Positions 10,889-62,499 of a stretch of DNA of 64,000 nucleotides are shown in pieces. Position 1 is the first letter of the stretch. Each line of letters begins with the position of its first letter. Both the position numbers and the translations under genes were made by a program. Source of the stretch: a virus; the IMG/VR virus record IMGVR_UViG_3300032080_000001, positions 32,001 to 96,000 of that record; one strand, 5' to 3'. Under the pieces are notes generated by a model. That model saw nothing but the letters and a program-made list of their open reading frames with translations, did no database searches and was not told where the DNA came from.

Positions 10889-11528
10889 CCTGACCCCGGC
10901 CGACCTCCAGCGGGCGAACATCCCCGAGAGGTACTGGAGCGCGACGTTCAAGGACGTACCGAAGGGGGCCGAGCACTGGGGCCCGGTGAAGACCTACCTG
11001 ACGGACCTGGAGTCCTTCCTCGACAACGGGGAGGGACTCTACCTCTGGTCCGTCGAGAACGGAACCGGCAAGACGGCGCTCGCGACGCTCATCCTGCGCC
11101 GCGCGCTGCGGCTGGGGTACACCGGCTACTACACGCGGTCCGAGGCGGCGAAGCGGGCGATGCAGGTGCCTGAGCGCGTGCTATTCGATGAGGCGACCAC
11201 GGTGGAGCAGCGTCTCCGCGCGGTGGACGTGCTGGTGTTGGACGACTTCGGCAAGGAGTACCGCTCGCAGAACGGCAGTATGTTCACCGAGAGCGCCATC
11301 GAGGACCTGGTGCGCGAACGCGTCCAGCGGCGCAAGGTGACGCTCTACACGGCGAACATTCCGCCGCGCAAGCTCGCGGATAACGGGCTGTTCACGGTGG
11401 ACCTCGCGGACGTACTTCGCGAGAGCGTGGGACACATCGAAGTGGTCGGCCCCGACCGGGGCGGGAAGTTGTGGCGCCGGGACGCCGCCACGGACCTCAT
11501 GGACCGCCTGTACGACGGGGATTCGTAA
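10869..11528 (+). CDS. DnaC/IstB-like helicase loader ATPase
   Basis: ANIPERYWSATF, Walker A NGTGKT, VLVLDDFGKE, TLYTAN. Confidence 0.85.
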   Translation: MSRTLRDLTPADLQRANIPERYWSATFKDVPKGAEHWGPVKTYLTDLESFLDNGEGLYLWSVENGTGKTALATLILRRALRLGYTGYYTRSEAAKRAMQVPERVLFDEATTVEQRLRAVDVLVLDDFGKEYRSQNGSMFTESAIEDLVRERVQRRKVTLYTANIPPRKLADNGLFTVDLADVLRESVGHIEVVGPDRGGKLWRRDAATDLMDRLYDGDS

Positions 11529-11532
11529 GAAC

Positions 11533-12813
11533 ATGGATTACGGCAAGTTGGCCATTGCGAGGGCGCTGACCGACCAGAGTGTCGGAGCGTTCCTCGACCG
11601 GGACGTGCGCCCGGATATGATGCCGACCCCGGAGGACGGGGCGGTGCTCAAGTTCATTCTCGACTTCTTCCGGCAGCACCAGGCGGTGCCCGCGCCCCGG
11701 ACGGTCGAGACGCAGTTCCCCGGCTACGCTCTCGGGTACGCGCCGGACCCCGCGACGGCGTACGTGGACGCCATCGTGAAGCAGCACGTCCGCGTGCGGG
11801 CGCAGGAGGAGATTCTTCACGACGTGAAGCTCTTCCAGCACGGAGACCCACTCCAGGTCGCAGCGGGACTCCAGACGAAGCTCGCGCGGCTCTCCTCTCT
11901 CACGGAGGGGAACCGGGTTAAGCTGTACAACGAGCACGCGAGCGGGCGCTTCGCGCGGTACTTGAACCGCAAGAATCGCGTGGGCCTGCTCGGTATTCCG
12001 ACCCCGTGGTCGTCGCTGGACGACCTGACGCAGGGGTGGCTTCCCGAGATGTACGTCGGCGTGGCGGCGCGGCCCAAGACAGGTAAGACGTTCTGGATGC
12101 TCCGTGTGGCGTTGGCCGCGTGGCAGGCGGGGTACAAGGTCCTGTTCGTCAACAAGGAGTTGCCGGACGAGATGATGGAGAACCGCTCCGACGCCATCGG
12201 GGCGAAGCTCCCGTATGAGAAGCTCCGCACCGGCGCCCTCACGATGTTCGAGGAGCAGCGGCTGGAGCAGTACCTCAAGGACCTTGAGGCGAACCCGCCG
12301 TCCGACTGGTGGTGGCTGCACGACGTGTCGAACGTCTCGGCCATCCGGGCGAAGGTGGAGGAGTACAAGCCGGACATCGTGTTCATCGACGGCGCGTACC
12401 TGCTCGAAGACGAGATGGGCGGCCGGACGGAACGTGAGCAGCAGAAGAACCTGTCGCGAAACATCAAGCGCCTCGCACAGAAGACGAAGCTGCCGGTCAT
12501 CATTTCCATCCAGTTGAACCGGGACGGAGACCAGAAGAAGAGCAAGACGCAGTTGACCATGTCGAACGTGTACGGCTCTGACGCCTTCGCGCAGGACGTG
12601 GACCTGCTCATCGGCCTGGAGCAGTCGGACGACCAGCGGATGAACCGACAGCTCCAGATTACTCCGCTTGCCGTCCGCGAGGCCGAGGGCAAGCCCATCA
12701 TCGTGGGCTGGGACTTCGACACGATGGAGTCGCCGGACTACGGCTATCCGTCGAGCGTGGCCGGGATGGCGAACGACAAGGATGACGACGACGTGTTGAC
12801 CTTCAAGGACTGA
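11533..12813 (+). CDS. dnaB: DnaB-like replicative helicase
   Basis: GIPTPWSSLDDLTQG, AARPKTGKT, VFIDGAY, QLNR, SDAFAQDVD. Confidence 0.9.
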   Translation: MDYGKLAIARALTDQSVGAFLDRDVRPDMMPTPEDGAVLKFILDFFRQHQAVPAPRTVETQFPGYALGYAPDPATAYVDAIVKQHVRVRAQEEILHDVKLFQHGDPLQVAAGLQTKLARLSSLTEGNRVKLYNEHASGRFARYLNRKNRVGLLGIPTPWSSLDDLTQGWLPEMYVGVAARPKTGKTFWMLRVALAAWQAGYKVLFVNKELPDEMMENRSDAIGAKLPYEKLRTGALTMFEEQRLEQYLKDLEANPPSDWWWLHDVSNVSAIRAKVEEYKPDIVFIDGAYLLEDEMGGRTEREQQKNLSRNIKRLAQKTKLPVIISIQLNRDGDQKKSKTQLTMSNVYGSDAFAQDVDLLIGLEQSDDQRMNRQLQITPLAVREAEGKPIIVGWDFDTMESPDYGYPSSVAGMANDKDDDDVLTFKD

Positions 12814-15282: not shown

Positions 15283-17883
15283 ATGCGCGTAGTGAGGACG
15301 CTTCCGGGGTGGAAGGACCTGCTGTACAAGCTCTGGAACAGCCGGGACAAGGATGGACTTCACGTCATCGGGTTCGACACCGAGACGCTGGACAGGGGAT
15401 TCCCTGACGTGCAAATCGTCGGCTTCTCGGCCGCGTGGTACGAGTGGAACCAGTTCGGCATCCTGGACAAGAATCGCGCGTACGTGCCGGTCGGCCACGC
15501 CACCGGCGAGTTGCAGATTACACTCGTGGAGGTGGTGCCGGGGCTTAAGGCGTTGCTGGAGGATGGTTCCGTCGAGGTCACGGGGCAGAACCTCAAGTAC
15601 GACGCGAAGGTGGTGCGCCTGCTCGGCATCGAACTTACCGAGAACGTGTTCGATACCCTTATCGCGTCGTGGCTGCTGAACACTAACGGTGTCGGCTCGA
15701 AGCTCCAGGTGTTGCTGGGGGAGGGGGAGCACGGGTTGAAGGCCCTGTCGAAGCACCTCCTCAAGAAGGAGATGACGGAGCTTACTGAGCTTGCGCCGAG
15801 GGAGAAGTATACGCGGGGCGGCGTCGAGTTCGAGACGCTGCGCGTGGACCTGGTCCCCATCGAAGACCAGTACGACCCGGTGAGCGGTGCGCTGGTGAAG
15901 AAGGGCATCGCGAACTACGCGGGTGACGACGCCGAGCGGGTGCTCGACCTGCGCGAACTCTTCAAGCCACAGTTGGACGAGGACCCGAGGACGCGGCGCG
16001 TGTACTACGCCATCCAGCGGGAGTTCATCTTCGTGCTGGTGGACATGGAGTCCTTCGGCGTCGAGCTGGACGAAGACCTGCTGGCCGACATGCGCGTGCG
16101 CATCGAGGCGGAGCTGGTCCTGGTGAAGGAGAGCATGTACCGCCAGCGCCGGGGCGAGGACTTCCCCGCTTTCGCGGACGCGGCCCTCGTCAAGAAGTTC
16201 GTGGAGCAGTGGGACGAGTACGAGGCGCGGTTCACGCTCGGAAAGGACCACCCCAACTACCCGAAGAAGGTGGTGGAGAAGGGTCCGCGCGGCAACAAGA
16301 CCACGTCGCTGGAGCCCGCGTCGAAGGCAACCGTTCGTAAGAACCTTATCGACGCGTTCGGTCTCCAGGGGCACCCGGTCGTGGACAAGGTCCGGGATGA
16401 CAAGTTGCGCCCCGAGGTGAAGATGTTCCCGCACCTCGCGCACAAAATCTTCAACCCCAGCTCGGTCAACGAGCTGAACAAGGTCCTGTTCCAGGAGCAG
16501 GGGTTGGCGCCCATCGGAGAGCGCGGCGCGAATGGCCTGTTCTCCACGAAGGCCGAGTACGTCGAGGTCTGGAAGAACTACGGCGACCCGCTGGCGAAGG
16601 AGCTGGACCGTCTCCGGGAAATCGACAAGCTGCGCGGCACGTACCTCGTCGGCATGGTGGCGCTGCTCTCGGCCGACCGGCGCCTGCGCGGGCGCATGAA
16701 CCAGGGCGGGACGCGGACCGGGCGGCTCTCGATGTCCGACCCGAACCTCCAGAACCAGCCGAACAATAAGGAGTTCCCCATCCGCCAGTCGTTCGTGGCG
16801 ATGGGGCTCACGGCTTCCGCCGTGACGATTCACGACTGGTACCTGGATGACAAGGGGAAGAAGACGAAGCCGAAGCACCTAACGGTGCAGGCGCTTGCCC
16901 CGGACGACCCGAAGCATCAGGCGTGGACCGCGCGCACTGGTGTCGTGCTCGACGGCGGCTACGAAATCCGGGAGAAGCAGGTCGTCCGCTGGTGGGGCAC
17001 GCGTCCCCCGTACGTGCTGTTCGTGGGCGACTACTCGCAGCTGGAAATCTGCCTGCTCGCGCACGAGTCCTCTGACGAGAAGCTGGTGACGGCCGTGAAG
17101 GAGGGGCAGGACATCCACGCGCTGACGGCGCAGGCGGTGTTCGACGCCATCCCGAAGACGATGTCTCTGGAGGACGTGAAGAAGAACTTCCCTGACCTGC
17201 GCAAGAAGGCGAAGCCCATCAACTTCGGCATCCTGTACGGGATGGGGCCGCAGAAGCTTGCGGGGACGCTCGGCATCTCGGTGGAGGAGGCGAAGGACAT
17301 CATCGAGAACCGCTACATGAGCTTCTACGTCGGCGTGGCGCGGTGGATTCAGAAGATGCACACCTTCGCCGTTGCGAACGGGTTCGTGACGACGGCAGTG
17401 GGGAGGAAGCGGCACCTGCCTGCCGCGCAGTTGCCGAGAGACGGTGAGACGTTGGGGTACAAGAACTCCATGCTCATCTCGAAGGCGAAGCGGCAGGCGC
17501 AGAATACTCCCATTCAGGGACTCGCGGCGGACCTGGTCGCGCTCGCGATGCGTGACCTCCGGCGGCGGTTCAAGAGCCTGGTGATTCAGGACCTCGCCTC
17601 GGAGATGCTGGTGGGAGCGAACGGCGAGCAGCCTACGCCGATGCCGGTGACGCTTCCTGGCCTGACGCACTGGGGCGCGGGGCCGGACGAGCTGTGGGGC
17701 AACTGGGTGCGCTCCCTCCTCCAGGTGCACGACGAGCTGGTGCAGGAGGCCCACCCCGCCGTCGCGAACTGGGTTGCGACGGAGTCGGTGGAGCTGATGG
17801 AGAACGCCGGGGGTATGTCGCTACGCGTCCCGATTCACGTGGACGCCGCCCTCGGTACCGATTGGTTCCTGACGAAGGAGTAA
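15283..17883 (+). CDS. polA: Family A DNA polymerase with 3'-5' exonuclease
   Basis: FDTET, GQNLKYD, YAGDDA exonuclease motifs; TRTGRLSMSDPNLQN, DYSQLE, KAKPINFGILYG, QVHDEL. Confidence 0.95.
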   Translation: MRVVRTLPGWKDLLYKLWNSRDKDGLHVIGFDTETLDRGFPDVQIVGFSAAWYEWNQFGILDKNRAYVPVGHATGELQITLVEVVPGLKALLEDGSVEVTGQNLKYDAKVVRLLGIELTENVFDTLIASWLLNTNGVGSKLQVLLGEGEHGLKALSKHLLKKEMTELTELAPREKYTRGGVEFETLRVDLVPIEDQYDPVSGALVKKGIANYAGDDAERVLDLRELFKPQLDEDPRTRRVYYAIQREFIFVLVDMESFGVELDEDLLADMRVRIEAELVLVKESMYRQRRGEDFPAFADAALVKKFVEQWDEYEARFTLGKDHPNYPKKVVEKGPRGNKTTSLEPASKATVRKNLIDAFGLQGHPVVDKVRDDKLRPEVKMFPHLAHKIFNPSSVNELNKVLFQEQGLAPIGERGANGLFSTKAEYVEVWKNYGDPLAKELDRLREIDKLRGTYLVGMVALLSADRRLRGRMNQGGTRTGRLSMSDPNLQNQPNNKEFPIRQSFVAMGLTASAVTIHDWYLDDKGKKTKPKHLTVQALAPDDPKHQAWTARTGVVLDGGYEIREKQVVRWWGTRPPYVLFVGDYSQLEICLLAHESSDEKLVTAVKEGQDIHALTAQAVFDAIPKTMSLEDVKKNFPDLRKKAKPINFGILYGMGPQKLAGTLGISVEEAKDIIENRYMSFYVGVARWIQKMHTFAVANGFVTTAVGRKRHLPAAQLPRDGETLGYKNSMLISKAKRQAQNTPIQGLAADLVALAMRDLRRRFKSLVIQDLASEMLVGANGEQPTPMPVTLPGLTHWGAGPDELWGNWVRSLLQVHDELVQEAHPAVANWVATESVELMENAGGMSLRVPIHVDAALGTDWFLTKE

Positions 17884-17887
17884 GACG

Positions 17888-18800
17888 ATGGTGAAGCGTA
17901 TGGATGGGGGTGCGGGGGAGACTGTGGTGCCGCGCATCCAGCCGGGCACCACGGTGACGTGGACTTCCCAAGGAGGAAGCCACCAGAAGGAGAAGACGGG
18001 GACTGTGCTGGGGTTCGTCCCGGCGTGGGTGAACGCTCGGTACCTCGCGAGCGCGGAGTTCGCCGCGCTGCCGCAGCACACGCCCCGGCGCCGGTTCGAC
18101 GGACTCACTTCGGCGGTGGACCGGTACATCGTGGAGGTGCCGCGTACCGGCGCCAAGGGGCAGGCGCTCCCCGCGTATTTCTACGCGCCGCTGGCGGACG
18201 TGCTGGAGCGGCAGAACAAGGACAAGGTCACTCTGGAGGTAGGGTGATGGCTTCCGCCTCTAAGACCGCGCGCGTGCGGGAGATGCTGAACCATCCCAAG
18301 CATCACCCGAGCGACCGGGACCGCGTCTCCGAAGAGTTGCGGGAGCGCACAGGCAGCGTGAACGACGGACGGCCCCTGGTGGTGTTCCTGTACATGCTGC
18401 TCCGTGACCACGTGCTGCCGGGCGACATCGAGAAGATGATGCGCGGCCTGTCGGACGCCGAGGCGCGGGGCATCCACGCCTTCGAGTTCACGAACGGCCA
18501 CCTGGCGCGCTACGCCCAGGACCTCGCGGACCGCCTGGAGGGCGAGTGACCGTCCACCCGTACGACCACGACTACTACGAAGGGCTCGCGCACAACAACC
18601 AGGGGTGCAACCGCCCGCCACCGGGCTGGTGGTGCTCCCGCGAGCCCGACCACGACGGACCGTGTGCGGCGCGGCCAGTGCCGCCCAAACCGAAGCCGCC
18701 GGGGCTGGTAGATGTGCGGGACTACGGTGCGCCGGTAGGCGGATTCCCGTGGCTGCTGCTCCTGGTCGCCGTCGCGGCGCTCATCCCTTCCTGTTCGTAA
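17888..18800 (+). CDS. Three translationally coupled hypothetical ORFs (17888-18247, 18247-18549, 18546-18800)
   Basis: Overlapping stop/start codons and genome-typical codon usage. Confidence 0.55.
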
Positions 18801-18807
18801 GAAGGCC

Positions 18808-22127: not shown

Positions 22128-22257
22128 GCGTTCGTAAGAAGACGCACTCCGAGGGGTTCTTACGAGCCCCTCGGTCGCTTTCTGCCCCTTGACAAGTGCC
22201 GGTGCTACGCCTATACTCTACCGGTACACCCGACGAACCCGAACGACGAGAACCTAG

Positions 22258-23902: not shown

Positions 23903-24236
23903 CGGCCGCTCCTCCTTTCGTACGAACAGAGACGAGCAAAGGACGAGCAGTGGCGACGACGAACGAAATCCTGATGGCCGCGCTAGAGCGCGAGGTGAAA
24001 GCGGCCCAGGGCAAGCTGCGCACAGCGCTGGGCGAGGGGCTCAAGGAGTACAACGAGCGGTTTTCTTCCTACAACGGCCTTCCCGAGTACCAGCGCGCGC
24101 ACCAGGAGGAGCCGAAGCTGCGGAGCACGGTGGACACGTACATCGCCCGCCTTACTGAGGCGCGGGACTACTACGACCAGGTCATGGAGCAGTACCAGAC
24201 CGCGCGCCACGCGGTCGTACGCGAGAGGAGCACCGT

Positions 24237-33091: not shown

Positions 33092-33262
33092 TGGGCAACG
33101 ACATCATCTACTTCGGGGAAGACCCCGGCGAGGACGGGGTTCGCATCACGGTGCCGGTACCCGGTACGCTGCCTGCCCCCGACGCGGACTGACCTGCACA
33201 AATACCGGTAGACGCTACGCTCTCTCCGACGCCCTTGGGACTCCGGTTCCAGGGGCGTTCGT

Positions 33263-40516: not shown

Positions 40517-40586
40517 CCAAGGCTACCAGTACTGTACCGGGAGCCCGGTAGGCGGGCTCCCCACTACTCGACGAGGATTCTTACGA

Positions 40587-40865
40587 ATGAGCAAGAAGCT
40601 GCTGTTCTTCCATCAGGCTAACTGCCCGCCCTGCGAAGAGGCCAAGCCCAAGATTGCGGCACTCCTGCTGCGTGGGCTCGCTGTCCACTACATCGACCTG
40701 ACGCCCGGAGAGCAACAGCACCCGCAGGCGGCGGAGCTGGTCCAACGCTACCGGGTGAAGTTCACCCCGACCGCCGTGGTCGTGGACGCCGACACCGGCG
40801 AGCGGCGCGGCTCGCAGTTCGGCAAGCTCATCAACACCGAGACCCTGGTATCGTTGCTCTCATAA
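40587..40865 (+). CDS. Thioredoxin
   Basis: CPPC active site, YRVKFTPT; directly after the RNR gene. Confidence 0.85.
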   Translation: MSKKLLFFHQANCPPCEEAKPKIAALLLRGLAVHYIDLTPGEQQHPQAAELVQRYRVKFTPTAVVVDADTGERRGSQFGKLINTETLVSLLS

Positions 40866-43517: not shown

Positions 43518-44808
43518 CCATGACCATCGAAGACCAGGTCTACCGTGCCGCCGTGGAAATGGAGGTGCGCACGTTGCGGAAGGGCGCGGCTCGTCACGTT
43601 TGGCTGAGCGAGTTGGACTACGCCCGCGCCCAGCGTGAGGCCGATGCCGAGCATCGTATCCTGAACGTGCACCACATCTACCACGCAGGGAGGTATATCC
43701 CGGAGGGTTTTGCGGCGCTGATGGACGCGACCTTGAACGTCACGACTATCCTGCGCCTAGAGAGCTAAGCCGATGAAGACAAAAACATACGCGGTGTCGG
43801 TGGTGCTGACGCGGATGAACACCGCGAGTATCAGCATCCACAACTTCCTCGGGGTCCGCACGGTGGCCAGCGGCCCGGATGCCGAAGACGCTGCTCGGGG
43901 AAGCGTGGTACAAGAGGCGTTGCAGGCCAATCCCGGTTTCGCGGTACACTTGATTCTCGCGCATGAGGTAGGCTGATGGGTACTGACGAACCGTGGAGCC
44001 CGGAGCGGGAGCGAGCGATGCGTGCCCGTACTCTTGAAGTCAAGGCGTACACGGGCTACGGCATCCCGTACGAGCATCTCAGGGGTTTGCCCGGCATCAA
44101 GGTGCAGCGGTTGGTGCCCGCCAAGCACAACGCTGGAATGTGCTCCTGCACCTGTCACGACGAGCCAGGCACCACGCACTTCATGGCGTGCTGCACGCGG
44201 ACGTACGAGCAGCGCATCCCGAAGCTGCTGCGCCCTACAGACTCGGAGTTCCTGGCGCTCTGGCAGGCTTCTTACGAACGCTTCTTGGCCGCTGAAACCA
44301 ACGAGGACCGCGACCGCGAGATTTACAACGGCCGCCTCCTGGTCCAGAAGCGCCTGCGGCGAGAAGACTGGAACCGCGTGCCGAACCCCGCGACCCTCGT
44401 ACGAAAGGACTGAGATGCACCCGAGCCACAAGACCCGCTTCTCCGACGCTTCCCGCTTCGACTACGTCTGCGTCTACTGCGGCGCGACCGACGAGACCGG
44501 GAACGGGTGGGGAGAGCTGGCGAAGCCATGCCCCAAGGCACCGCCTCCGGCCGCCGAGCCGTGAGGCTGCGGGCCATCCTCTGCGCCCTGTGGTTCGGCA
44601 TCATACCGTGGTGGGTCTACGAGGAAGAGCGGCACTACCCGGAGCCGTACCTGGAGCACCTTTGGCTGAACCTCGTCTACGCGGCGCACTGGGCACTCGG
44701 CCGACAAACGCTTGGAGATGTACGCTTCGAGCTTGAGAACAACTAGCAGCCGAGGCTCGTACGCTGGGCGCCGAGGAACGGGAACGGTAAAGTAAACATA
44801 GTCTGCCC

Positions 44809-45688: not shown

Positions 45689-46084
45689 GGGCTCGCCAGG
45701 CTTCGACAGGTGCAGACGCAGGTGGAGGGTATGCGTGCAAGGGGCGTCTTCCGGTCTCTTTGAACACACGGAAGAAACTTCAAATGCCACTCGTAACGAC
45801 GTGGTTGCCGTGAACGCGATTCCCGCGTACGCCCAGGCGTAAAACCCTGCGGTAGGCACCGGCCAAACCGACTCCGATAGGGGCGGCCGTACTGCATCGG
45901 AGGACACCGGGAAAGACTGGGGTGGACGGCCTGTGCACCTAAAACACGGCAGGGAAGGGGGTCAGACCTCCAGCGGGCCGCGTACGCCCGACCGCCCAAC
46001 GAATGGGTCACACTACGCTACGCACGCTGAATAGTCCGAAACAGGCTTTGTGCTTGGACGCGGGTTCGATTCCCGCCGAGTCCA
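45689..46084 (+). ncRNA. ssrA: tmRNA
   Basis: Acceptor stem GGGCTCG/CGAGTCC-A with a G3-U wobble, 5' ttcgac, T arm gcggg-ttcgatt-cccgc, tag ORF 45786-45842 (ATRNDVVAVNAIPAYAQA*). Confidence 0.92.
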
Positions 46085-46088
46085 CTAA

Positions 46089-47595: not shown

Positions 47596-47668
47596 GCCGC
47601 GTTAGCTCAGTTGGTAGAGCAGGGGACTCTTAATCCCAAGGTCGGAGGTTCGAACCCTCCACGCGGCA
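47596..47668 (+). tRNA. tRNA-Lys(CTT)
   Basis: Canonical cloverleaf, anticodon loop ctCTTaa, no encoded CCA. Confidence 0.95.
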
Positions 47669-48618: not shown

Positions 48619-48901
48619 CCACTGTCTCCATTCGTTTCTTCGGCGTGCCCGAAGACCGGTACGAGCGCTCGCCCTACCACGACGACGTGGTGCGCATCCA
48701 GCGAGTGCTGCGCGAACGGGGGTGGGACGCGACGTACCAGCAGGCAGAGGGAGCCTGGGACGCTTACTCGGACGACGTAGAGGCAATCTGGATGGACCTG
48801 CCCAAGACCGACGACTGCCTCTACGAGCGCGTGAGGGGATACATCGAGGCGGTTGACTAGCCGCCTCTCATTCGTAAGAACTACCAACCGGACTAGAAGC
48901 C

Positions 48902-50094: not shown

Positions 50095-50178
50095 GCCCCC
50101 GTGCTGGAATTGGTAGACGGACCGGACTCAAAATCCGGGGGCCGAAAGGCTGTGTGGGTTCGAGTCCCACTGGGGGTA
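50095..50178 (+). tRNA. tRNA-Leu(CAA)
   Basis: Cloverleaf with variable arm gcc-gaaa-ggc and anticodon loop ctCAAaa. Confidence 0.95.
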
Positions 50179-50803
50179 CTTCTCATTCCGGAGGACCGGT
50201 GCAGGTCTTGTTCGTGAGGGTCAGCGAAAAGCTTCACGACACCGTGAACGTGAAGCTGTTTGAAGAAGGTTTAAGCGGCACGCACCTGGGCACGCTGCAT
50301 CTTCGTAAGAAGACGTGGGCGGAGTTGGAAGAAATCCTCCGCCGAGGTCTTCTCGCCCAAGGCAAACTCCTCGTCGTGCAGCAAAGCAACAGGCCCGCTC
50401 GCGCGGCGTAACCCCTTGACAAAACAGCACGACCCTATTACGTTTGGGTCCTCAGCACGTGGGACTCTCGTACGAAGTGCCGGAACTACCGGTACAGTAC
50501 CAACAGCGCACGAAGACCGATGACGAAGAATTTCCGCTCCAAGTTCTCGGCCGCCACCGGCACCGCGCTCATCGACGGCACCATCGCCCAGTTCCGCAAG
50601 ATGCGGGAGAGTCTGGAGAGCGGTATCGAGCACCTGACGAACGCGCGCAACGCGAACGACAACGAGGTCGAGACCAGCCGCCAACGGCACGCGGCCTTCG
50701 CGCACGCCAAGGCGCAGGAGAACGGCGTGCTCGACGCGAAGATGGAGGAGGCCCGGCATGTGCTGGCCGCCCTGCCGGGCGCGCCGCGTGAGAAGGAGGT
50801 GGT

Positions 50804-51712
50804 GTGATGCCCGAGGTGCGCTCGTACTCCAGCATCTACAACATCGACCACCGCGTCGCGGCCGACATCTTCGACGGACCGGTCGCCGTGCAGGAGAAGG
50901 TGGACGGCTCGCAGTTCTCGTTCGGCGTGTACGACGGCGAGGTCGCCGTGCGCTCGAAGGGGCAGCAAATCATCCTCGACGCGCCGCCGAAGATGTTCAA
51001 GAAGGCCGTGGACACGGTGCTCCGGCTGGCCCCGCGCCTGGTGCCCGGCTGGACGTACCGAGGCGAGTACCTGGAGAAGCCGAAGCACAACGCGCTGGCG
51101 TACAGCCGGGTCCCCAAGGACCACATCATCCTGTACGACATCGACCGGGGCCACCAGGACTACCTGTCCCCCGAGGAGACGTTCGCGGAGGGCGTTCGCC
51201 TGGGGCTGGAAGTGGTGCCGCTGCTGTACTACGGCGTGCTCGCCGGTCCCGCCGAGGCGCGGGCGCTGCTCCCCGAGGAGAGCATCCTGGGCGGCGTGAA
51301 GCCCGAGGGCGTGGTCGTGAAGAACTACGCCAAGCTGGACCCGGAGAAGAAGACGCTGATGGTCAAGTTCGTGACCGAGGCGTTCCGCGAGGTCCACAAG
51401 AAGGCGTGGGGCGAGAGCAACCCCGGCCAGAAGGACATCATCCAGCGCCTCATCGAGACGTACAAGGTCGAGGCCCGGTGGGAGAAGGCCGTGCAGCACC
51501 TTCGCGACGCCGACGTGCTAACCGGCACGGTGAAGGACATCGGCGCGCTGATAAAGGAGGTGCCGAGGGACGTGCGGAAGGAGGAAGAGGACGCCATCAA
51601 GGACGCACTCTTCGCCTACGCGTGGCCGCACATCCTGCGCGGCATCACGTCCGGCCTGCCGCAGTGGTACAAGGCACGGCTGGAGGCCGAGGCGATGGAG
51701 GCCGCCGCATGA
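50804..51712 (+). CDS. RNA ligase (Rnl2-like nucleotidyltransferase)
   Basis: QEKVDGSQ (motif I), RGEY, LYDI, VVPLLY, PEGVVVK, MVK. Confidence 0.8.
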   Translation: MMPEVRSYSSIYNIDHRVAADIFDGPVAVQEKVDGSQFSFGVYDGEVAVRSKGQQIILDAPPKMFKKAVDTVLRLAPRLVPGWTYRGEYLEKPKHNALAYSRVPKDHIILYDIDRGHQDYLSPEETFAEGVRLGLEVVPLLYYGVLAGPAEARALLPEESILGGVKPEGVVVKNYAKLDPEKKTLMVKFVTEAFREVHKKAWGESNPGQKDIIQRLIETYKVEARWEKAVQHLRDADVLTGTVKDIGALIKEVPRDVRKEEEDAIKDALFAYAWPHILRGITSGLPQWYKARLEAEAMEAAA

Positions 51713-52973: not shown

Positions 52974-54314
52974 ATGACGAGTAACATCTTCGGTACGCAC
53001 GATGCCAACACCCTCGCGCAGTTCGAGGACGTGCAGAGCCGCGCGCTGCGCGCTGCACTCATGTCGGACGGGCACCTCGGCTACGTCATGCCTATCGGCG
53101 GTGTGGCGGCGTACGACAATAAGGTGAGCGTGGTGGGGGTCGGGATGGATATCGCGTGCGGGAACGCTGCCATTCGTACCAACCTGACGCTGGAGGGGCT
53201 CACCGGCATCACCGCCGAGGAAGCGAGGAGCAACCCGCACCGTGTGGCGGCGAACCGCGTGCTGAACGAGCTGGCCGACACCATCCAAAGCACCATTTCG
53301 TTCGGCATCGGTCGTAAGAACCAGAACGACGACGCCCCCGTGGACCATCCGTTGTTCCTGGACCCGCGCTGGTACGCGGTACCGAACACCGGGAGCTTCC
53401 GCCAGGACCTCATCGAGAAGGCGCGGCGCCAGCTCGGCACGGTCGGCTCGGGCAACCACTACGTGGACGTATTCTACGACGAGCAGGGCCGCATTTGGGT
53501 AGGCGTGCACTTCGGCTCGCGAGGGCTCGGTCACACCATCGCCACGAACTTCATCGCCATCTCGCAGGGCGGAACGTGGGGAGACCGGGCGAAGGAAGTG
53601 GAGGTACTGCTGGACCTCGACACGCCGATGGGGCACGACTACTGGAGCCTGATGAACCTCGCGGGGGCGTATGCCTACATTGGCCGCGAGTGGGTGGCGC
53701 GCAAGGTGGTGGAGCTGCTGGGCGGCGCCGAGCTGGAGCTGGTGCACAACCACCACAACTTCGCCTGGAAGGAGTTTCACGCCCTGCGGGAACCGCCCAA
53801 CGGAACACAATTCCACGGTGGCACCTCCTCGGTGCGTGAGGTGGTCGTGGTCCGCAAGGGTGCGACTCCCGCCTTCCCTGGCCAGAAGGGCTTCGTCGGC
53901 GGCAGCATGGGCGACGACTCGGTCATCCTCCGGGGCGCCGACTCGGAGGAGCCCATGACCCCGTGGGAGGAAGAGGCGAACGACGCGGTGTGGGCCGCGC
54001 AGGAGGCCGCGCTCTTCTCCACCGTTCACGGTGCGGGCCGCGTGATGAGCCGCACGGCCGCCGCCGGGAAGCGCGACCGCAAGACCGGGCAGGTGAAGGT
54101 ACCCGGCGCCATCTCTCCGGAGATGATGAAGACGTGGCTCGCCAAGAAGGGTGTCATCCTGCGCGGTGGTGGGCTAGACGAGGCACCGCAGGCGTACCGT
54201 CGCCTGCACGAGGTGCTGCCACAGCAGCGCGGCACGGTGGAAGTGTTGCACACGCTGTCGCCGCTGGTCGTGGTCATGGCCGGAGCCAACGAATTCGACC
54301 CGTACAAAGACTGA
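52974..54314 (+). CDS. rtcB: RtcB RNA ligase
   Basis: DGHLGYVMPIGGV, DIACG, GTVGSGNHY, HFGSRG, HNHHN, RKGATPA, STVHGAGR, DEAPQAYR; promoter at 52905. Confidence 0.95.
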   Translation: MTSNIFGTHDANTLAQFEDVQSRALRAALMSDGHLGYVMPIGGVAAYDNKVSVVGVGMDIACGNAAIRTNLTLEGLTGITAEEARSNPHRVAANRVLNELADTIQSTISFGIGRKNQNDDAPVDHPLFLDPRWYAVPNTGSFRQDLIEKARRQLGTVGSGNHYVDVFYDEQGRIWVGVHFGSRGLGHTIATNFIAISQGGTWGDRAKEVEVLLDLDTPMGHDYWSLMNLAGAYAYIGREWVARKVVELLGGAELELVHNHHNFAWKEFHALREPPNGTQFHGGTSSVREVVVVRKGATPAFPGQKGFVGGSMGDDSVILRGADSEEPMTPWEEEANDAVWAAQEAALFSTVHGAGRVMSRTAAAGKRDRKTGQVKVPGAISPEMMKTWLAKKGVILRGGGLDEAPQAYRRLHEVLPQQRGTVEVLHTLSPLVVVMAGANEFDPYKD

Positions 54315-55047: not shown

Positions 55048-55494
55048 GTGGCGCGGGTCATCATCGCGGGCTCGCGGAGCTTCACCGACATTCGTTACGT
55101 GAAACTGGCGGTGAAGCTTACGCTGGAGCGGCATCCGGGTCTCAGCATCACCGAGGTGGTGTCCGGCAAGGCGCGAGGGGCGGACACTCTCGGGGAGTGG
55201 TGGGCAAAGAAGAACAGCATCCCGGTGAAGGAGATGCCTGCTCCGTGGGACGACCTCACCCGACCGGGTGCGAAGATTCGTACGAATGCGTGGGGCAAGA
55301 AATACAACGCCAACGCGGGCTTCGAGCGCAACCGTGACATGGCAAAGTACGCCGCCGACGACCCGTACGGACAGGGCGGCCTCATCGCCCTTTGGGACGG
55401 CGAGTCGAACGGCACGCTCGACATGATTGAGCACGCCAAGGCGTACAACCTGTGGGTCGAGATGTTCACCAAACGCTTAAAGGCACCGGAATGA
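55048..55494 (+). CDS. SLOG-family protein (YspA/DUF2493-like)
   Basis: IIAGSRSF, VVSGKARGADTLGE.WA, AGFERN.DM, WDGESNGT.DMI. Confidence 0.85.
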   Translation: MARVIIAGSRSFTDIRYVKLAVKLTLERHPGLSITEVVSGKARGADTLGEWWAKKNSIPVKEMPAPWDDLTRPGAKIRTNAWGKKYNANAGFERNRDMAKYAADDPYGQGGLIALWDGESNGTLDMIEHAKAYNLWVEMFTKRLKAPE

Positions 55495-56311: not shown

Positions 56312-56705
56312 TGCTTCCGTACATCTGGTACGCGACGAAGTATGCGCTGTTCTCCGTGTTCACGACCGGTGTGGCCGGGGCGGCTACATGGTTCGTCGGG
56401 GTGACGCCCACCCCCGCCGCGTTCGCCGCAGTCTCGGTGCTCAACTTCGTCGTGCTGGTGACAGTGAATCCTCTCAACTGGGATGACGCGTCATGAAATT
56501 CTTACGAATCGCGTGGCGCTGGTTCACCGGCCGCTGCACACGCTGCGGCGCGCCGATGGAGACCGCCTACTCCGGCTGCACGGGCGCGTGGTTCCGCTGC
56601 ACCAATTCCGCGTGCAGCGTGCCCCCTTGACAAAACCGTAGGACGCGTTTAAGTTCTGTCGTCTGTCTGACGACTACTCCCGAGTCACCTGTTGAAAGGA
56701 AGCTG

Positions 56706-57835: not shown

Positions 57836-57966
57836 GTCCGGCGCGGTTCGTACGAAGACCCGGCACTCATTCGAGAGCCGGGTCTTTCTGTTGCCCCTTG
57901 ACAAAACAACGTGCCCCGTATATGTTAGTCGCGTTCGCCTGACGACTCACCAGCGAAGGAACAGCA

Positions 57967-60543
57967 ATGCCCCCGCCCACGCCCGCGAAGCTCGGAACCC
58001 TGACGTTCCTGTGCCCCACACACGGGCCAGTGCCTCTGCGGCGCAGCGACGTACACTTTTATGCCAACCTCAACCACGGCGTGACTGCGTCCTTCGACTG
58101 CGACTGCGGAAATAAACACCGCGTGGTGCTGATGGAAGAAAGCGGAGAGCAGGTCGGAGGCATGGGATGAACTTCGACCTGATTCGGCCGTGCGCCAATT
58201 GCCCCTTCCGTAACGACAAGCCGGGCTACCTGCGGCGCGAGCGCGTGGAAGAGCTGGAGGAGGGGATGGAACGGGGCACCTTCGCCTGCCACAAGACGGT
58301 GGACTACGACCGGTGGGACGAGGAGAGCGGAGAGGACGGCGAGCCCGCCGACTACACCCACGACGGAACCGAGCAGCACTGTGCGGGTGCGCTCATCCTC
58401 ATGGAGAAGGAAGGCCGCCCGTCCCAGCTCATGCGCATCGGAGAGCGCATCGGCTTCTACAACCCGGAGAAGCTGGACATGAACTCCCCTGTCTACGCCT
58501 CCTGGGCGGAGATGGCAGACGCGATGCAGGAGTAGGAGCACCACCCAACCCAACCCAACGAAAGGCCGCACGCCCGTGATTTCGACCACGAAGAAGACCC
58601 TGCGCGAGATGGAGCCCGGCGACCGCGTCCTTCTCCAGAAGCCCGGCGAACACGCCCTGTTCCGCACGGTGGCAGTGTACCCGGAGACCGATGGCGAGGG
58701 GTACCCGTTCGTACGAATGAAGGAGGCGCCGGAACTGCGCCTGTATCTCGACCTGCGCCGCCAGTACACCGTCGCCTGCCCGCCGCAGGTCTGACCGCTC
58801 CCGGCGGGGTGCTCCTCGGCACCCCGCCATTCTTATGCCCCTTGACAAATTCGTACGACCCGATTAGATTCGGGACCGTTCTGGAGACGACTCACCGACG
58901 AAAGGTAAGACGATGGCAAAGTATCGCATCGGGAACGCGGTGCGCGGAGAGTTCTACTTCGACGCACCTGACGACGAGACCGCGTGGACCATCGGGGCGG
59001 CCCTATTCGACAACGCATACCCGACCGTCTCCGGCCACGGCCGAATGGTGATGTTGGAGGCGGTTCGGCCGGTGAAGCAGGATTTCACACCGGGGAAGAA
59101 GGACACCGGGAGAAAGGGGTAACGGCGCCATGAAGCTCATATTCTACCACTCGGGGGACGAGGAGACACTCCACATCGTGCTGGAGTCCGGGGACGGCCG
59201 CGACACCGACGTTATCCGCACCGACTACGACCTTGTCGGTTGGAGCGGTTTGGCAGCGGTGCGAGAGACCGCCGAGACGCTCGCGCGTGCCGCCGGGTGG
59301 TCCGTCGAGCACAGCTACGGCGACGAGGACGACTACGAGGACGAAGAGGCCCCGTGCGCCTGATAACAGCGGAGGGCGAAGCGCGCGAGATGGGCTTTCG
59401 CTTTCGCCTTGGGCGACTTGGGTACGGGTCATACCGCACCGAGGTCAACGGGGCCGTGTTACGTGGCGGGCCCTTCGCGGGGTTCCTCGCCGTGTGCCAT
59501 ACCCGCGAGCGCTGGCGCTACCTCGGCCTCGGGTTCTGGTGGCGAGACTACCTACGCGCGAGGTGCAAATGAGCGACGGCTGGATGCTGTACGAAAACGT
59601 GCGCTTCCCGCACTGGCGCATGAAGGCCCGCCTTGCGACAGCCGAAGAGTTAGCCGCGAGCGAGGTTCCTTTCGCGGAGGCATACGTCGCATGCAACGGC
59701 TACGACTTCCACCGGAGTGACGTGTTCAAGAAGTACTGGCGACCCGTGACGGAGGAGACCGTATGAAGGGGGAGTTCATCCGCCAGTACGTGGCGGCGTT
59801 TCTCGCCGGTCTAGCGGTGGAGGAATTCAACCAGAACCGCTCGCACCGGGCGAACGAGACCCGGTATCAGACGCCGGATGCAGTCTTCCTGGCCGAGGAG
59901 GCGTGGAAGACGCTGGAGCAGGAGGCGCCCCAGTACACCACGGAGAACGCATGAGCGGCCAGTCCACCGAGAATCCGCTGGACGCCTTCTCGCGGGAGAT
60001 GACCGGCAAGCCGCTGGCCGACCTCACGCGCGAAGAGAGGCAGGCTCTCCAGCGTCATCCAGCGTGGCTCGGCATCGCGTACGGCATGGGGCAGCAGCGC
60101 ATGAACGACCTGCTCCTGTTGGACTACAGCAGCGACCACCTGCCGCCGGGAGACAACACCCCCGAGCAAAAGGAGATGATTGGCCGAGTCACCGAGATGT
60201 TCCGACAGTTTCACGCGGCGTACCCGGAGTTCAAGGCACTGTTCCCGCAGAGCCCCGCGCCCGTGCAAGAGCGCCACAACCACGGCCTCCAGAACGCGTG
60301 GGTCCGGGCGGCTGAACTTCGTATGAAGGAGAAGGACCACGAATGATGCTTCCGCTGCCGGTGGACCAGATGCACCCGCTCACGCGCGAAGAGGTCATCG
60401 CACGCGTTGAGGCGACGGGAGTAGCCGCGCCGCAGGTGCGCAGTGTGGTGCGCGCTCTCGCGGACGAGCGACTGGTCAACTTCTTCGGCATCCACGGGTC
60501 TGATACCGTCATCGCGGTGTACTACCCTGACCAGCCTAACTGA
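57967..60543 (+). CDS. Clusters of small hypothetical ORFs
   Basis: Follow the promoters at 57898 and 58842; coupled ORFs, e.g. 58167-58535 (Cys-rich CANCPF...FACHKT...HCAGA). Confidence 0.55.
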
Positions 60544-60981
60544 CGACTTCGTACGACCCGCCGGGTTGACAGAATCGTACTGTACCGGTATATTACCGGC
60601 GTTGTGCGACTTCATGGGACGCGCCCGCTTCATCTTAAGCGTCCCCTACTTCGTACCGTGGATAACGGTACTGTACATACAGGACACCGGTCCGCTTCAT
60701 ACGGGCGGACCGGCTCCGATCACGTTGCGCGAGACATGCTGACGCCGACTGGAGTGCCTCTAGTCCTGAACCCCGCTGTACCGCGCGGCATGTCGTTCCA
60801 GCTTAACGGAAGCCTCGTCCTGAATCCCAAGGACGTTTACGATTTCGGCACGGTGTACATCGCCCCCGGCCTCTTGCAGCCGGAGGCATTGACAAATGCC
60901 GGTGACCCTATTAGCTTAACGGACGTAGCTGACTCGGCCACTTCACCCGAGCCAACTTCGACACCTGGGGAGACGACGCGC

Positions 60982-62499
60982 ATGGCGAAGCAGAACGTAA
61001 TGAAGGTTCCGAACCCGAGGACGGGTCAGGACGAGCCGCAGTTCATCGACGTGGAGTTCCACGGTGTCGTCGTCCCCCTGCTGGAAGTGCGGCGCGCCCT
61101 GCGCGGGGACAAGAAGCTGCGTCAGGAAGACATCGCCGCGCTGACCGCCAACTACACGCCGGACAAGCGCGCCCTGCACCAGACCTCGGTCAGCAACTAT
61201 TTCCTCGGCAAGGTCCCGATGCACGACGCCGTAGTGTCGTTGCTGGAGGCGACCTTCACGCCCGCCGAGGCGCAGTCGATGGCGACGAAGAGCCCGCTGA
61301 TGAGCGCGCCCGTCCCCACGCCGCAGGTCTCGGGCCTCACCACAGCGGACCTCGTGGACCCCAAGACGGCGGGCGTCCTGACGACCGCGATGCTGGAGCA
61401 GGCGGAGCAGGAGCGACAGAAGGCCCTACAGACCGGTCGCGTAAACACCGCGTCGCCCACGTTCCAGAACATCCCGGTACCGCGCACGGCGGGCGCCCCG
61501 GCCTTCGCGCAGACGCTATCCGCCGTGGGAGGGGGAGCGCCACTCTCGCCGGACGCCACGGTGGTGCCGCAGGCGCCGACCACGCAGACGCACACCGTCG
61601 CGGTCAAGGCGCTCCAGCCTTTCCCGATGGATAAGGCGCACGAGCTGGCGGCGGGCGTGCGCACGGCCGAGCGGAAGGGTGACGTGACGACCACGTTCTC
61701 GCTGCGCAAGCTGGTGGCGTGGGGTCGCGCGTACTACCTGCTCCAGCAGGAGGGCTACGACCCGAAGGAGGCGCTGTCCGGGGCGTTCCACCTCGCCGCC
61801 GAGGGCAAGACCTACGGCGAGGACCGCACGTTCCTCAAGAACCTGTTTCAGGCCAAGTTCGGCTTCGAGAGCAAGCCGCCGCGCGAGAACTCTCGCGTGG
61901 CGCTGTCCGAGGGGCGCCACCCGATGTCCTACCTCATCGAGCCGCTGGTGCGTGAGGGCATGCACGTCTGGCTGCACGGACCGACCGGGGCGGGGAAGAC
62001 GCACTCGGTGTTCGACATCGCCGCGCGCCTCAACCGCAAGGTGGTCCGCTTTCAGGGCAAGGGGGACGCGACCACGGACGACTTTGTGGGTGGCTTCGGG
62101 CTCAAGAGCGAGAACGGCGCGTCGGTGACGGAGTTCCAGTACGGCCCGCTTCCGAAGGCGATGATGGAGGGGTCCCTGCTGAACATTGACGAAATCACGA
62201 CCCTCCCGGCCGAGGTGCTCTTCGAGTTGCAGGCGGTGCTGGAGGGCAAGCCGCTGGTTCTTACGAAGAACCGGGGTGAGGAGATTCTCCCTGCCCCCGG
62301 CTTCGCGGTGGTGGCGGCCGACAACACGCTCGGCCTCGGGGAGGCCCCGGCCTACGTCGGGACCAACGTGATGAACGAGGCGTTCCGCGACCGCTTCTTC
62401 TTCATCGAGTACGGCTACATGCCTGACGCGATGGAGAAGCGGGCCCTGAAAAGCGAACTGGAGGCGTTCTTCAACCCGCGCGGGTGGGCGGTGGCCTGA
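60982..62499 (+). CDS. MoxR/CbbQ/CobS-type AAA+ ATPase with N-terminal HTH-like region
   Basis: GPTGAGKT, FQYGPL, NIDEI, AADNT.G, YVGTNVMNEAFRDRF. Confidence 0.88.
   Translation: MAKQNVMKVPNPRTGQDEPQFIDVEFHGVVVPLLEVRRALRGDKKLRQEDIAALTANYTPDKRALHQTSVSNYFLGKVPMHDAVVSLLEATFTPAEAQSMATKSPLMSAPVPTPQVSGLTTADLVDPKTAGVLTTAMLEQAEQERQKALQTGRVNTASPTFQNIPVPRTAGAPAFAQTLSAVGGGAPLSPDATVVPQAPTTQTHTVAVKALQPFPMDKAHELAAGVRTAERKGDVTTTFSLRKLVAWGRAYYLLQQEGYDPKEALSGAFHLAAEGKTYGEDRTFLKNLFQAKFGFESKPPRENSRVALSEGRHPMSYLIEPLVREGMHVWLHGPTGAGKTHSVFDIAARLNRKVVRFQGKGDATTDDFVGGFGLKSENGASVTEFQYGPLPKAMMEGSLLNIDEITTLPAEVLFELQAVLEGKPLVLTKNRGEEILPAPGFAVVAADNTLGLGEAPAYVGTNVMNEAFRDRFFFIEYGYMPDAMEKRALKSELEAFFNPRGWAVA

Follow-up and report, generated by a model that had tools for sequence, protein, structure and literature searches.

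The 64,000-bp stretch of viral DNA analyzed here (hereafter the window) comprises bases 32001-96000 of the 123,873-bp IMG/VR record IMGVR_UViG_3300032080_000001 (G000), and both the window and the rest of the record contain dispersed copies of a 10-bp palindromic motif, TTCKTAMGAA. Across the entire 124-kb genome this site is subject to DNA-level selection, and the sequence patterns described below make it very probable that it is a dyad-symmetric site that a protein reads on the DNA. The putative binder is most likely encoded by the phage. Our preferred interpretation, for which we estimate a probability of about 0.4, is that the copies form an operator and roadblock array for a phage-encoded homodimer, the candidates being a ribbon-helix-helix protein (P0123) and a ParB-like protein (P0121). 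Coordinates refer to the window unless they are given as genome positions, which count from the start of the record.

The motif occurs exactly 17 times in the window, as compared to a mean of 0.05 copies and a largest value of 1 in 100 dinucleotide shuffles. All 17 lie where an initial annotation of the window had placed them, and its judgment that such a word is very unlikely to arise by chance agrees with these figures. The whole record holds 31 exact copies, and the pattern read backwards, which served as a control, is found 0 times. Counted on both strands, the resulting 62 occurrences compare with a Markov expectation of 0.27 (order 1) to 2.64 (order 4), and in simulated genomes exact copies averaged 0.05 at order 1 and 0.5 at order 3. 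Copies with a single mismatch are likewise in excess, as 21 are present in the window and 38 in the genome, where 4.4 (order 1) or 10.3 (order 3) would be expected. The ten such copies listed previously all exist, but three of them begin one base earlier (19938, 44396 and 53311), because the mismatch is their first base. The 31 exact and 38 one-mismatch copies of the whole genome are referred to below as the 69 sites. Every module of the genome carries sites, including the late structural genes for the head and tail. The earlier remark that no exact copy lies in the structural region at 1-7200 is correct for the window, but the structural module extends further upstream, and genome positions 1-32,000 contain seven exact copies.

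On the plus strand, the exact sites take the forms TTCGTACGAA (11 copies), TTCGTAAGAA (9), TTCTTACGAA (8) and TTCTTAAGAA (3). The two asymmetric forms are equally common (9 versus 8) despite the one-strand layout of the genes, 167 of the 169 called over the whole record by a crude gene caller being on the plus strand. The half-site variants combine freely, which fits independent variation of two half-sites, and the geometry is that of two abutting 5-bp half-sites with no spacer between them. Among the 38 near-copies, the mismatch is at the first base in 12 cases and at the last base in 6; since mismatches fall mostly at the outermost bases, the core is TCKTAMGA. The flanks carry no information, and conservation is confined to the 10 bp. 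It is the strand indifference of a symmetric word in a one-strand genome, together with the selection that is visible through the codon-based null described below, that leads us to a protein-binding site recognized in the DNA, as the initial annotation had proposed from the occurrence of both orientations. By the same token, it is highly improbable that the motif acts in RNA or represents a promoter or terminator element. Several copies do adjoin hairpins, ribosome-binding sites or start codons, but the asymmetric forms, which would give different RNAs, are used equally, a palindromic 10-mer without a spacer should be incapable of forming a stable hairpin, and no Rfam family covers any site (the 3 Rfam matches in the window are all tRNA or transfer-messenger RNA (tmRNA)). 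Moreover, the motif lacks the strand bias of the genome's promoter motif (47 versus 1), unlike what would be seen for a sigma-70 element or a terminator.

Selection is also apparent within protein-coding DNA. The 167 called coding sequences contain 15 exact sites, whereas synonymous-codon shuffles that kept the protein sequences and the codon usage of each gene fixed yielded a mean of 0.29 and a maximum of 3, and 0 of 1000 shuffles reached 15. The initial annotation had named a comparison of this kind in advance as the way to check its proposal, and the proposal survives it. All called proteins together offer 35 positions whose peptide permits the motif, and 15 of these 35 permissive places are used, so that a second, DNA-level message is written over the protein code. 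The codons involved are uncommon, each accounting for 5-10% of its family (CGT for 9.8% and CGA for 6.0% of Arg, CTT for 6.2% of Leu and GTA for 6.6% of Val), in keeping with the earlier observation that intragenic copies are built from rarely used codons such as CTT and CGT. The site in the family A DNA polymerase (PolA) gene encodes V-R-K-N (GTT CGT AAG AAC), where homologues have xRK(Q/K/A/E/S), mostly xRKQ or xRKK, or xRT(Q/R), and the site in the gene of the ParB-like protein encodes VLTK, as compared to VFAK or VFKG in its homologues (14 homologues, in which these residues are not conserved). The motif-permitting residues thus differ from those of homologues at both intragenic sites that were checked, and because these are only 2 of the 15, the residue shift is an anecdote.

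These intragenic copies bear on the possibility that the motif is recognized by a protein of the host, for instance a nucleoid protein or a global regulator, and that the phage exploits or mimics this. The absence of the motif from the relatives searched (6 of 6, see below) would fit adaptation to one host, and the phage-encoded binders are candidates only. It is, however, not obvious why a host operator would have to be encoded at 15 positions within genes, with rare codons as the price, and the only public run in which the DNA was found is a soil metagenome, possibly the source of the record itself. We consider a host binder improbable.

Seven of the intragenic exact sites can be placed individually in the window. 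They lie within the family A DNA polymerase gene (16334-16343), the gene of a SWIM zinc-finger protein (31014-31023, encoding F-V-R-T), the ParB-like gene (34047-34056, V-L-T-K), an open reading frame (ORF) at 44018-44413 (44269-44278, A-S-Y-E), the gene of a SLOG (YAcAr) protein (55277-55286, I-R-T-N), an ORF at 58576-58794 (58708-58717, 133 bp upstream of a promoter motif at 58841) and the gene of a MoxR-type AAA+ ATPase (62258-62267, V-L-T-K); those at 31014, 55277 and 58708 are exact palindromes.

The remaining 16 of the 31 exact sites are located at gene junctions or between genes. Nine exact sites lie no more than 15 nt past a stop codon; in two of them the TAA of the motif is itself the stop, and one exact site supplies the A of an ATG with its last A. 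For example, the TAA in the site TTCGTAAGAA at 11522-11531 serves as the stop of the IstB/DnaC-like loader gene (10869-11528), and the DnaB-like helicase ATG (11533) comes 2 nt after the end of the site, while the final A of the site at 40578-40587, located 62 nt past the ribonucleotide reductase stop, is the A of the ATG at 40587. Other copies lie 5 nt upstream of an ATG at 18808 (18794-18803), 15 nt past the RecA stop (23917-23926, a palindrome) and 11 nt past another stop (48871-48880). Each of the latter two comes directly after a hairpin, with the following start 24 nt away in the first case and 22 nt away, at 48902, in the second. A non-coding copy at 50302-50311 is 113 bp upstream of a promoter motif at 50415, and one that is 3 nt past a stop (56499-56508) is 127 bp upstream of the promoter motif at 56626. 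Three further junction sites share the order stop codon, site, hairpin and promoter. The first (22131-22140) lies 4 nt past the stop of the P0122 gene (21510-22127) and is followed by a hairpin, whose loop contains the one-mismatch copy TTCTTACGAg (22157-22166), and then by a promoter (22189-22217). The second (34620-34629), a palindrome, lies 1 nt past the stop of an endonuclease VII/HNH-like ORF (34128-34619) and precedes a terminator-like hairpin (34637-34650) and a promoter (34666-34694). The third (57847-57856), also a palindrome, lies 12 nt past a stop and precedes a hairpin and the promoter motif at 57897. Outside the window, an exact copy of TTCTTAAGAA (genome 122480) is found 44 nt before a tyrosine integrase gene.

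The promoters to which these sites are related have a uniform, sigma-70-like form throughout the genome, cccCTTGACAAa-N9-TGACCCtATTAnnTT. Over the whole genome, TTGACA-N16-18-TAnnnT occurs 47 times on the plus strand and once on the minus strand, and CTTGACAA occurs 39 times and once, respectively. In the window, positions of the promoter motif include 7264, 9293, 12933, 22188, 34665, 40901, 42556, 50415, 52904, 56626, 57897, 58841 and 63371, and a separate scan confirmed the promoters at 22189 and 34666 as well as the hairpin at 34637-34650. Many promoter copies come after a hairpin; promoter-stem-loop cassettes are known from T4-type phages. A TGACCCtATTA block is conserved in the promoter spacer and may be a second operator or a sigma-specific element.

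The 69 sites are concentrated near these promoters. Twenty of them fall between -160 and +70 of a -35 element, as compared to a mean of 6.1 and a maximum of 14 in 2000 trials of random placement, and among the sites outside called coding sequences the figure is 18 of 38, where 10.2 are expected (P = 0.005). Site density is also higher in the promoter-rich part of the genome, where 24 of the 31 exact copies lie in the 84.7 kb beyond genome position 39.2 kb and seven lie in the first 39.2 kb. Three sites are located in promoter spacers, and each of them starts 8 nt after the first T of TTGACA: an exact copy at genome 8475 and one-mismatch copies at genome 90850 and 103093, in the promoters at genome 8467, 90842 and 103085, respectively. 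The second of these is the window site TTCGTACGAc (58850-58859), at register +8 from the -35 element of the promoter at 58842 (TTGACAAATTCGTACGACCCGATTAG). A fourth promoter carries a two-mismatch copy at the same spacer register, and three sites (12986, 42598 and 50467) lie +41 to +52 from the -35 element, just past the likely start. Overlap with a core promoter or with the earliest transcribed bases is seen for seven of the 69 sites. These are classical operator positions, and they support repressor-like action at about seven promoters and possibly also at the ends of transcription units. In the proposed mechanism, a protein bound over a promoter spacer or just past a start would act as a repressor, a site that follows a stop codon and precedes a terminator-promoter pair would serve to mark the end of the transcription unit or make it tighter, and intragenic copies would provide extra roadblock or nucleation sites. 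Taken together, the sites could allow one protein to dampen or mark the whole genome, perhaps in a lysogenic or early phase.

The first candidate for the bound homodimer is P0123, an 80-residue protein encoded on the plus strand at 7713-7955 that matches the Pfam ribbon-helix-helix family TacA1 at 21.4 bits (cut-off 21). It is predicted to form a homodimer with an ipSAE interface score of 0.52, as compared to 0.00 for the best control, and the mark used was reached by 21 of 30 solved pairs and by 0 of 23 single chains. The dimer runs share at least 89% of their contacts, the predicted local distance difference test (pLDDT) score is at least 72, and residues 9-11 pair across the dyad. As the family has many solved dimers, this result may only mirror a likeness to them. 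Homologues of P0123 are rare, with two among 5.8 billion proteins and none in viral contigs (single-protein scan), a scarcity that would be in keeping with a motif specific to one lineage. A single ribbon-helix-helix dimer recognizes some 8-10 bp, as in the 8-bp MetJ box, and ParB-type sites span 13-16 bp. From this background knowledge we infer that the small footprint suits a ribbon-helix-helix dimer such as P0123 better than a ParB-type dimer. Further candidate binders include a RepC-like winged-helix protein (8203-9249) and P0122, which we take to be an excisionase/MerR-like helix-turn-helix protein from inspection by eye; its residues 23-62 match a PHROG 'transcriptional regulator' family, and two sites lie directly after its stop codon. 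An 82-residue protein (genome 106448-106696) encoded behind an operator-like promoter resembles a winged-helix protein when inspected by eye and is also a candidate. The small proteins downstream of operator-bearing promoters, including this one, had no match in Pfam.

Several observations weigh against an operator and roadblock array. A site covers the core or the earliest transcribed bases in only seven of the 47 promoters, and the binder therefore cannot be a general repressor of all 47. Forty-nine of the 69 sites are away from any promoter, and the 15 exact sites in genes include copies in late structural genes; because most sites are so placed, the roadblock role of the intragenic copies is one that we infer. 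The gene calls are crude and span 80% of the record, which limits non-coding DNA to at most 20%, and some of the 'intergenic' sites may therefore fall in small uncalled genes. With respect to P0123, ribbon-helix-helix repressors usually need two or more adjacent boxes, and only two close pairs of sites, 26 and 16 bp apart, are present here. There is also no sign that P0123 regulates itself, because no site with two or fewer mismatches lies between the promoter at genome 39264 and its gene, and only one lies upstream of that promoter. Finally, the authors who described the dispersed repeats of the Cluster O mycobacteriophages judged a transcriptional role unlikely because most sites are far from promoters (PMC4351075), and the same point applies here.

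The second candidate, P0121, is encoded on the plus strand at 33263-34147, directly downstream of the gene for a SpoVS-like protein (32774-33091, Pfam E = 4.8e-9). An alignment of 15 homologues suggests that its true start is the Met at 33287. The initial annotation had noted that the one-mismatch copy TTCGTAtGAA (33258-33267) overlaps the start of this gene; the copy does contain the ATG at 33263, but with the likely true start at 33287 it sits about 20 nt upstream, and it lies 47 bp past a second kind of palindrome, TACCGGTA, at 33203. P0121 belongs to PHROG 26387, 'ParB-like partition nuclease' (E = 1.3e-56), and its NPN and GGxHR motifs are invariant among the 14-15 homologues, but its Pfam ParB_N match is below threshold (21.5 bits, cut-off 26.3). 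In its structural model, which has a pLDDT of 78.6 and KorB as the top Foldseek match (E = 1.3e-7), the N-domain (model residues 27-137) aligns with Noc, ParB and KorB at VIA Z scores of 11.5-12.2, as befits a ParB N-terminal fold. The values are Z 12.2 with a root-mean-square deviation (rmsd) of 2.2 Å over 95 residues for Noc (7ng0), and Z 11.8 with an rmsd of 4.2 Å over 125 residues for KorB (8qa9_B, model residues 27-167). The alignment with KorB and Noc extends to residue 167, and the family profile of P0121 aligns with Noc through its helix-turn-helix region (E = 3e-7, low posterior support), so that the model would allow a helix-turn-helix after the N-domain, which is possible but uncertain. 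Because the region after residue 137 is modelled at a pLDDT of 56-75, a DNA-binding domain is not established.

The surroundings of the P0121 gene were compared with those of its homologues. In G000 the gene lies 62 kb from the terminase, between the SpoVS-like and endonuclease VII-like genes. In other contigs, the ParB-like gene adjoins a small-terminase-like gene in 18 of 22 loci and a conserved family of about 485 residues in 20 of 22; two of three members of this family that were tested have weak glycosyltransferase matches and one has none. The usual module order (L109, L110, L113-L127) is one or two of the ~485-residue genes, the ParB-like gene, a small-terminase-like gene of 190-260 residues and the large terminase gene, and an epimerase gene is sometimes found near the ~485-residue family genes. 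The corresponding module is split in G000 (genome 514-1182 and 3167-5212).

To our searches, G000 has no close relatives: megablast and tblastn gave no match in a phage collection, a single-protein scan of viral contigs with PolA returned nothing, and a metagenome scan with the polymerase returned 80 loci that are mostly cellular Pol I and none close. The closest relative by protein searches is a 106.7-kb contig that encodes P0002 (PolA, 63% identity) and P0125 (ParB-like, 65%). TTCKTAMGAA is absent from the six relatives searched, G001 (PolA 53%) and G002-G006, and de novo palindrome scans of G007-G016 did not flag it. Contigs that encode the ParB-like family and contigs with a related large terminase were scanned for enriched degenerate palindromes, and the arrays found in them consist of other words. 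These are 12-14-bp quasi-palindromes of the form GCA-N6-TGC (e.g. CAATCGATTG, GCAGGnnCCTGC and GCAnACGTnTGC), which occur about once per 2-3 kb, many of them in genes, in genomes that are also transcribed from one strand; the carriers include G011, G014, G015, G003, G016 and G013. G011 (93 kb) has 47 copies of GCAATYRATTGC (control 0), 28 of them inside genes and with a center that is always CA or TG and never CG. G014 (92 kb) has 32 copies of GAAATYRATTTC, G003 (50 kb) has 24 of GCAAnCGnTTGC and 29 within one mismatch of the 10-mer CAAGCGCTTG, G016 (27 kb) has 12 of GCAAKCGMTTGC, and related words are found in about 25 further terminase loci (L184-L243). Spacing within the arrays is regular, with a coefficient of variation (CV) of about 0.5 (P < 0.001 in G011 and G014, 0.001 in G003 and 0.03 in G016).

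The arrays do not follow the ParB-like gene. In 55 terminase loci of at least 12 kb, strong palindromes are present in 18 of 34 with the gene and in 8 of 21 without it (Fisher P = 0.41). No array accompanies the gene in G009 and G012 (both 100% complete) or in G008 (92%), and G010 has the gene with only seven copies of GCCCGGGC; conversely, G020 (100% complete) has no ParB-like homologue in its record, yet its terminase locus L243 contains 5 copies of GCAATnnATTGC across 21.6 kb. When 15 genomes, most of which had been chosen for the ParB-like gene, were clustered by BLAST, this family alone proved common to all near-complete genomes compared, four with arrays and four without. Judged from these contigs, the ParB-like family and the dispersed palindromes appear to occur independently among related phages. 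The families best associated with arrays in the 55 loci are head genes, which points to phylogeny rather than function, and because the arrays follow a clade whose head module is of another type, they may be a separate phenomenon that parallels TTCKTAMGAA without being related to it.

These results bear on whether the sites are parS- or OB-like loading sites at which P0121 enters the DNA as a nucleoside triphosphate-dependent clamp that slides and coats the genome, possibly for silencing over long distances in the manner of KorB, for partition or membrane functions, or to mark phage DNA. The ParB N-domain, the Noc profile alignment and the invariant motifs described above speak for such a role, as do the three sites within 1.4 kb around the gene (the near-copy before it, the exact copy inside it and another 470 bp after it), the slightly more even than random genome-wide spacing of the sites, and the precedent of KorB, which has 12 dispersed operators in three distance classes. 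The cluster at the P0121 gene is, however, no denser than those at genome 86762-87277 or 89847-90850, and a search of the complete record with the ParA-type ATPase model PF13614 (AAA_31) gave no match at E <= 0.1, other ParA models being outside that search. The abutting 10-bp motif is shorter than ParB-family sites, the ParB_N match and the C-terminal part of the model are weak, the gene keeps company with terminase and ~485-residue genes elsewhere, and some phage ParB-like proteins activate thymine dioxygenases and are devoid of DNA-binding domains, according to PMC13229309. The initial annotation had read the neighboring sites as a sign that the ParB-like protein binds the motif; given the 10-bp site, the lack of a ParA-type AAA_31 match and the missing association of gene and arrays in relatives, this attractive guess is disfavored, and we regard loading of P0121 at the sites as doubtful.

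It is very improbable that the motif is targeted by a system for sequence-specific modification of DNA (through a methyltransferase or base hypermodification) or by a nuclease that nicks or cuts. Short, gap-free palindromes are typical of type II enzymes, and the phage encodes nucleotide-metabolism genes along with the HNH/endonuclease VII-like ORF. Such targets should normally be avoided or neutral, not enriched several-hundred-fold, and their fixed position in promoter spacers would be left over. Three DNA methyltransferase families were searched, with none found at E <= 0.1, and the Tet/JBP dioxygenase model PF12851 gave no match at E <= 1 in G000, G003, G011, G014, G015 and G016. The activation of thymine dioxygenases by phage ParB-like proteins would nonetheless favor a modification system, and many 5mYOX-type dioxygenases escape the Tet_JBP model, as reported in PMC13229309.

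The same distribution of sites could also arise if they served a DNA transaction other than transcription, such as replication, recombination, genome organization or packaging, and a dimer bound every few kilobases would then initiate, pause, pair or compact the DNA. A non-transcriptional DNA role was proposed for the Cluster O dyad repeats (PMC4351075). Consistent with such a role, 49 of the 69 sites are far from promoters, half of the exact sites are in genes, sites occur in every module, and the phage encodes RepC-like winged-helix, RecA, endonuclease VII-like and small-terminase-like proteins. The spacing of exact sites around the circle is marginally more even than chance (CV 0.72, P = 0.04), and the arrays of G011, G014 and G003, phages with related terminases, are regular at 12-14-bp words. 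On the other hand, the regularity is marginal here and fades when near-copies are included (P = 0.10), the arrays elsewhere track a clade with a different head module and are perhaps unrelated, and the promoter enrichment and the fixed register in three spacers would need a separate explanation. We consider this alternative rather unlikely.

A broader and more speculative view, which we likewise hold to be unlikely, is that the palindromes form a 'self-marking' code, in which a phage protein tells phage from host DNA by a word that is present genome-wide and seldom found elsewhere. Selection acting on codon choice, and even on amino acid residues, would maintain this word, and the protein would use it to silence, shield, compact, recombine or package the genome. 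If this were true, the regular arrays in phages with related terminases would represent the same principle in other words, and they would point to a common way of organizing or marking phage genomes, a widespread and as yet undescribed layer of genome organization. Few genome-wide words are known in phages, and the Cluster O repeat has been without an explanation since 2015. The present case contributes quantitative proof of selection under a codon-aware null, a clear association with some of the promoters, at a constant register in the spacer, and a short list of testable candidate binders, of which the neighboring ParB-like protein does not track the arrays across related phages.

The remaining content of the genome describes the phage in which the motif is found. 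The record has a G+C content of 65%, and its ends overlap by 127 bp. Its head genes are T4-like (gp20-like portal, gp21-like protease and gp23-like capsid protein) and its contractile tail is represented by sheath and baseplate protein genes, so that the phage is a myovirus; a large terminase and a small-terminase-like protein with a putative N-terminal helix-turn-helix are also encoded. The replication and recombination genes encode the RepC-like winged-helix protein, an ATP-dependent ligase, the DnaC-like loader, DnaB, a Toprim primase, PolA, an SNF2-type helicase and RecA. The nucleotide-metabolism genes encode ThyX, a deoxynucleoside monophosphate kinase, a dUTPase/dCTP-deaminase-like protein, a class II ribonucleotide reductase and two nucleoside 2-deoxyribosyltransferase-like proteins. 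In the window there are a tmRNA (45689-46087, Rfam 58.9 bits, ARAGORN tag peptide ATRNDVVAVNAIPAYAQA), a tRNA-Lys(CTT) (47596-47668) and a tRNA-Leu(CAA) (50095-50179), near which RtcB (52974-54314) and an RNA ligase (50807-51712) likely form a tRNA-repair set. The gene at 60982-62499, which had been taken for a helix-turn-helix protein and hence for a possible binder, encodes a MoxR-type AAA+ ATPase according to Pfam, with a 320-residue N-terminal region that has no assigned family. About 0.9 kb downstream, beyond several small ORFs, lies a gene for a CobT-like VWA protein (63372-65624), and the two constitute a phage MoxR-VWA pair.

The second dispersed palindrome, TACCGGTA, has 38 copies genome-wide, is usually extended as TACCGGTAnnnTACnnnTA with an 11-bp period, and lies mostly between genes of the structural module. 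Its window positions are 1927, 5927, 6528/6539, 8163, 14345, 22219, 26845, 32086, 32316, 33203, 38074, 44815, 50487, 57531 and 60583. It is kept in relatives that lack TTCKTAMGAA, with 17 copies in G001 and 8 copies of GTACCGGTAC in L166, and it probably represents a promoter of the middle or late phase, or else the site at which the activator of such a promoter acts.

Two features outside the window concern the life cycle. A tyrosine integrase is encoded at genome 122533-123504 (L092 12533-13504; Pfam 46.8 bits, cut-off 27.1), preceded by a 132-residue ORF with weak matches to the excisionase-like HTH_17 family. Because of this integrase the phage is possibly temperate: a myovirus with a T4-like head may be so, or the integrase may instead serve as an Xer/Cre-like resolvase. 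In addition, the sole back-to-back pair of strong promoters is found at genome 112101/112133 (L092 2101-2140). Its leftward promoter drives the only clear minus-strand gene (94 residues, genome 111732-112016), which holds a one-mismatch copy of the motif, and the pair could be a genetic switch. The product of this gene matched no family and showed no recognizable DNA-binding family.

In comparing TTCKTAMGAA with known systems, we found no paper that uses its strings in a comparable sense among the literature matches listed, which were primers or unrelated sequences, and a literature search on dispersed, regularly spaced intragenic palindromes in phage genomes yielded nothing relevant. The operators of MetJ, Arc and CopG-type proteins share a short, gap-free palindrome of 8-10 bp, and G000 encodes an 80-residue predicted dimer of this class; these operators, however, are single boxes or small clusters of boxes at the promoter that they regulate, unlike the dozens of single boxes dispersed through coding DNA in G000. 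KorB-OB, ParB-parS and Noc-NBS resemble the present case in that palindromic sites are dispersed over a mobile element at, near and far from promoters, and in that a protein of ParB fold, whose structural model matches KorB and Noc best, is encoded in the window. They differ in that their sites span 13-16 bp as compared to 10 bp in G000, in which the AAA_31 model gave no ParA match, and in that the protein and the arrays do not co-occur among relatives. By analogy, KorB-OB of plasmid RK2 (PMC11790492) is the best model for how such a system might work; membership in this class is not established.

The Cluster A stoperators, as presented in PMC9283540, are asymmetric 13-mers that are read by a monomer, lie in one orientation and are confined to promoters and short intergenic spaces. 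Shared with G000 are a repressor-type site that occurs more than 20 times per genome, in promoters and far away, and a proposed block of both initiation and elongation; the stoperator phages are temperate, and G000 also encodes an integrase. The initial annotation had offered a stoperator-like roadblock system as one reading. The seven sites at promoters and the three in the stop-terminator-promoter arrangement (22131, 34620 and 57847) agree with it, but the site of G000 is symmetric, 10 bp long and randomly oriented, and 15 of its 31 exact copies are in genes; as stoperators are asymmetric, orientation-dependent and intergenic, the motif does not belong among them.

The closest described case is found in the Cluster O mycobacteriophages, whose genomes, according to PMC4351075, carry a 17-bp dyad-symmetric repeat, 5'-TGTTCGGNNNCCGAACA, for which the authors predicted a dimeric binder. 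In phage Corndog, 34 copies comprise 14 that are intergenic, 10 near the 5' ends of genes and 10 in mid-gene or 3' positions, and only four are near promoters, in agreement with the authors' view on transcription; a ParB-like domain protein is also encoded there and was judged unlikely to act in genome stability. Both systems have more than 30 copies of one dyad word, placed in and between genes with few near promoters, the word is not found in other phages, and a ParB-like domain protein is present. G000 follows this pattern with 31 exact and 38 near copies; genes contain 15 of the 31 exact copies, and 49 of the 69 sites lie away from promoters. The repeats differ in that the Cluster O word has 7-bp arms and a 3-bp spacer, whereas the G000 motif consists of abutting 5-bp half-sites; the lineages differ as well, G000 being a myovirus with a T4-like head module and an integrase, which Cluster O phages lack. 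Unlike in Cluster O, 20 of the 69 sites of G000 are near promoters, three of them with a shared spacer register. TTCKTAMGAA is thus best filed beside the Cluster O dispersed dyad repeat, to which G000 adds clearer links to promoters and proof of selection at the level of codons.

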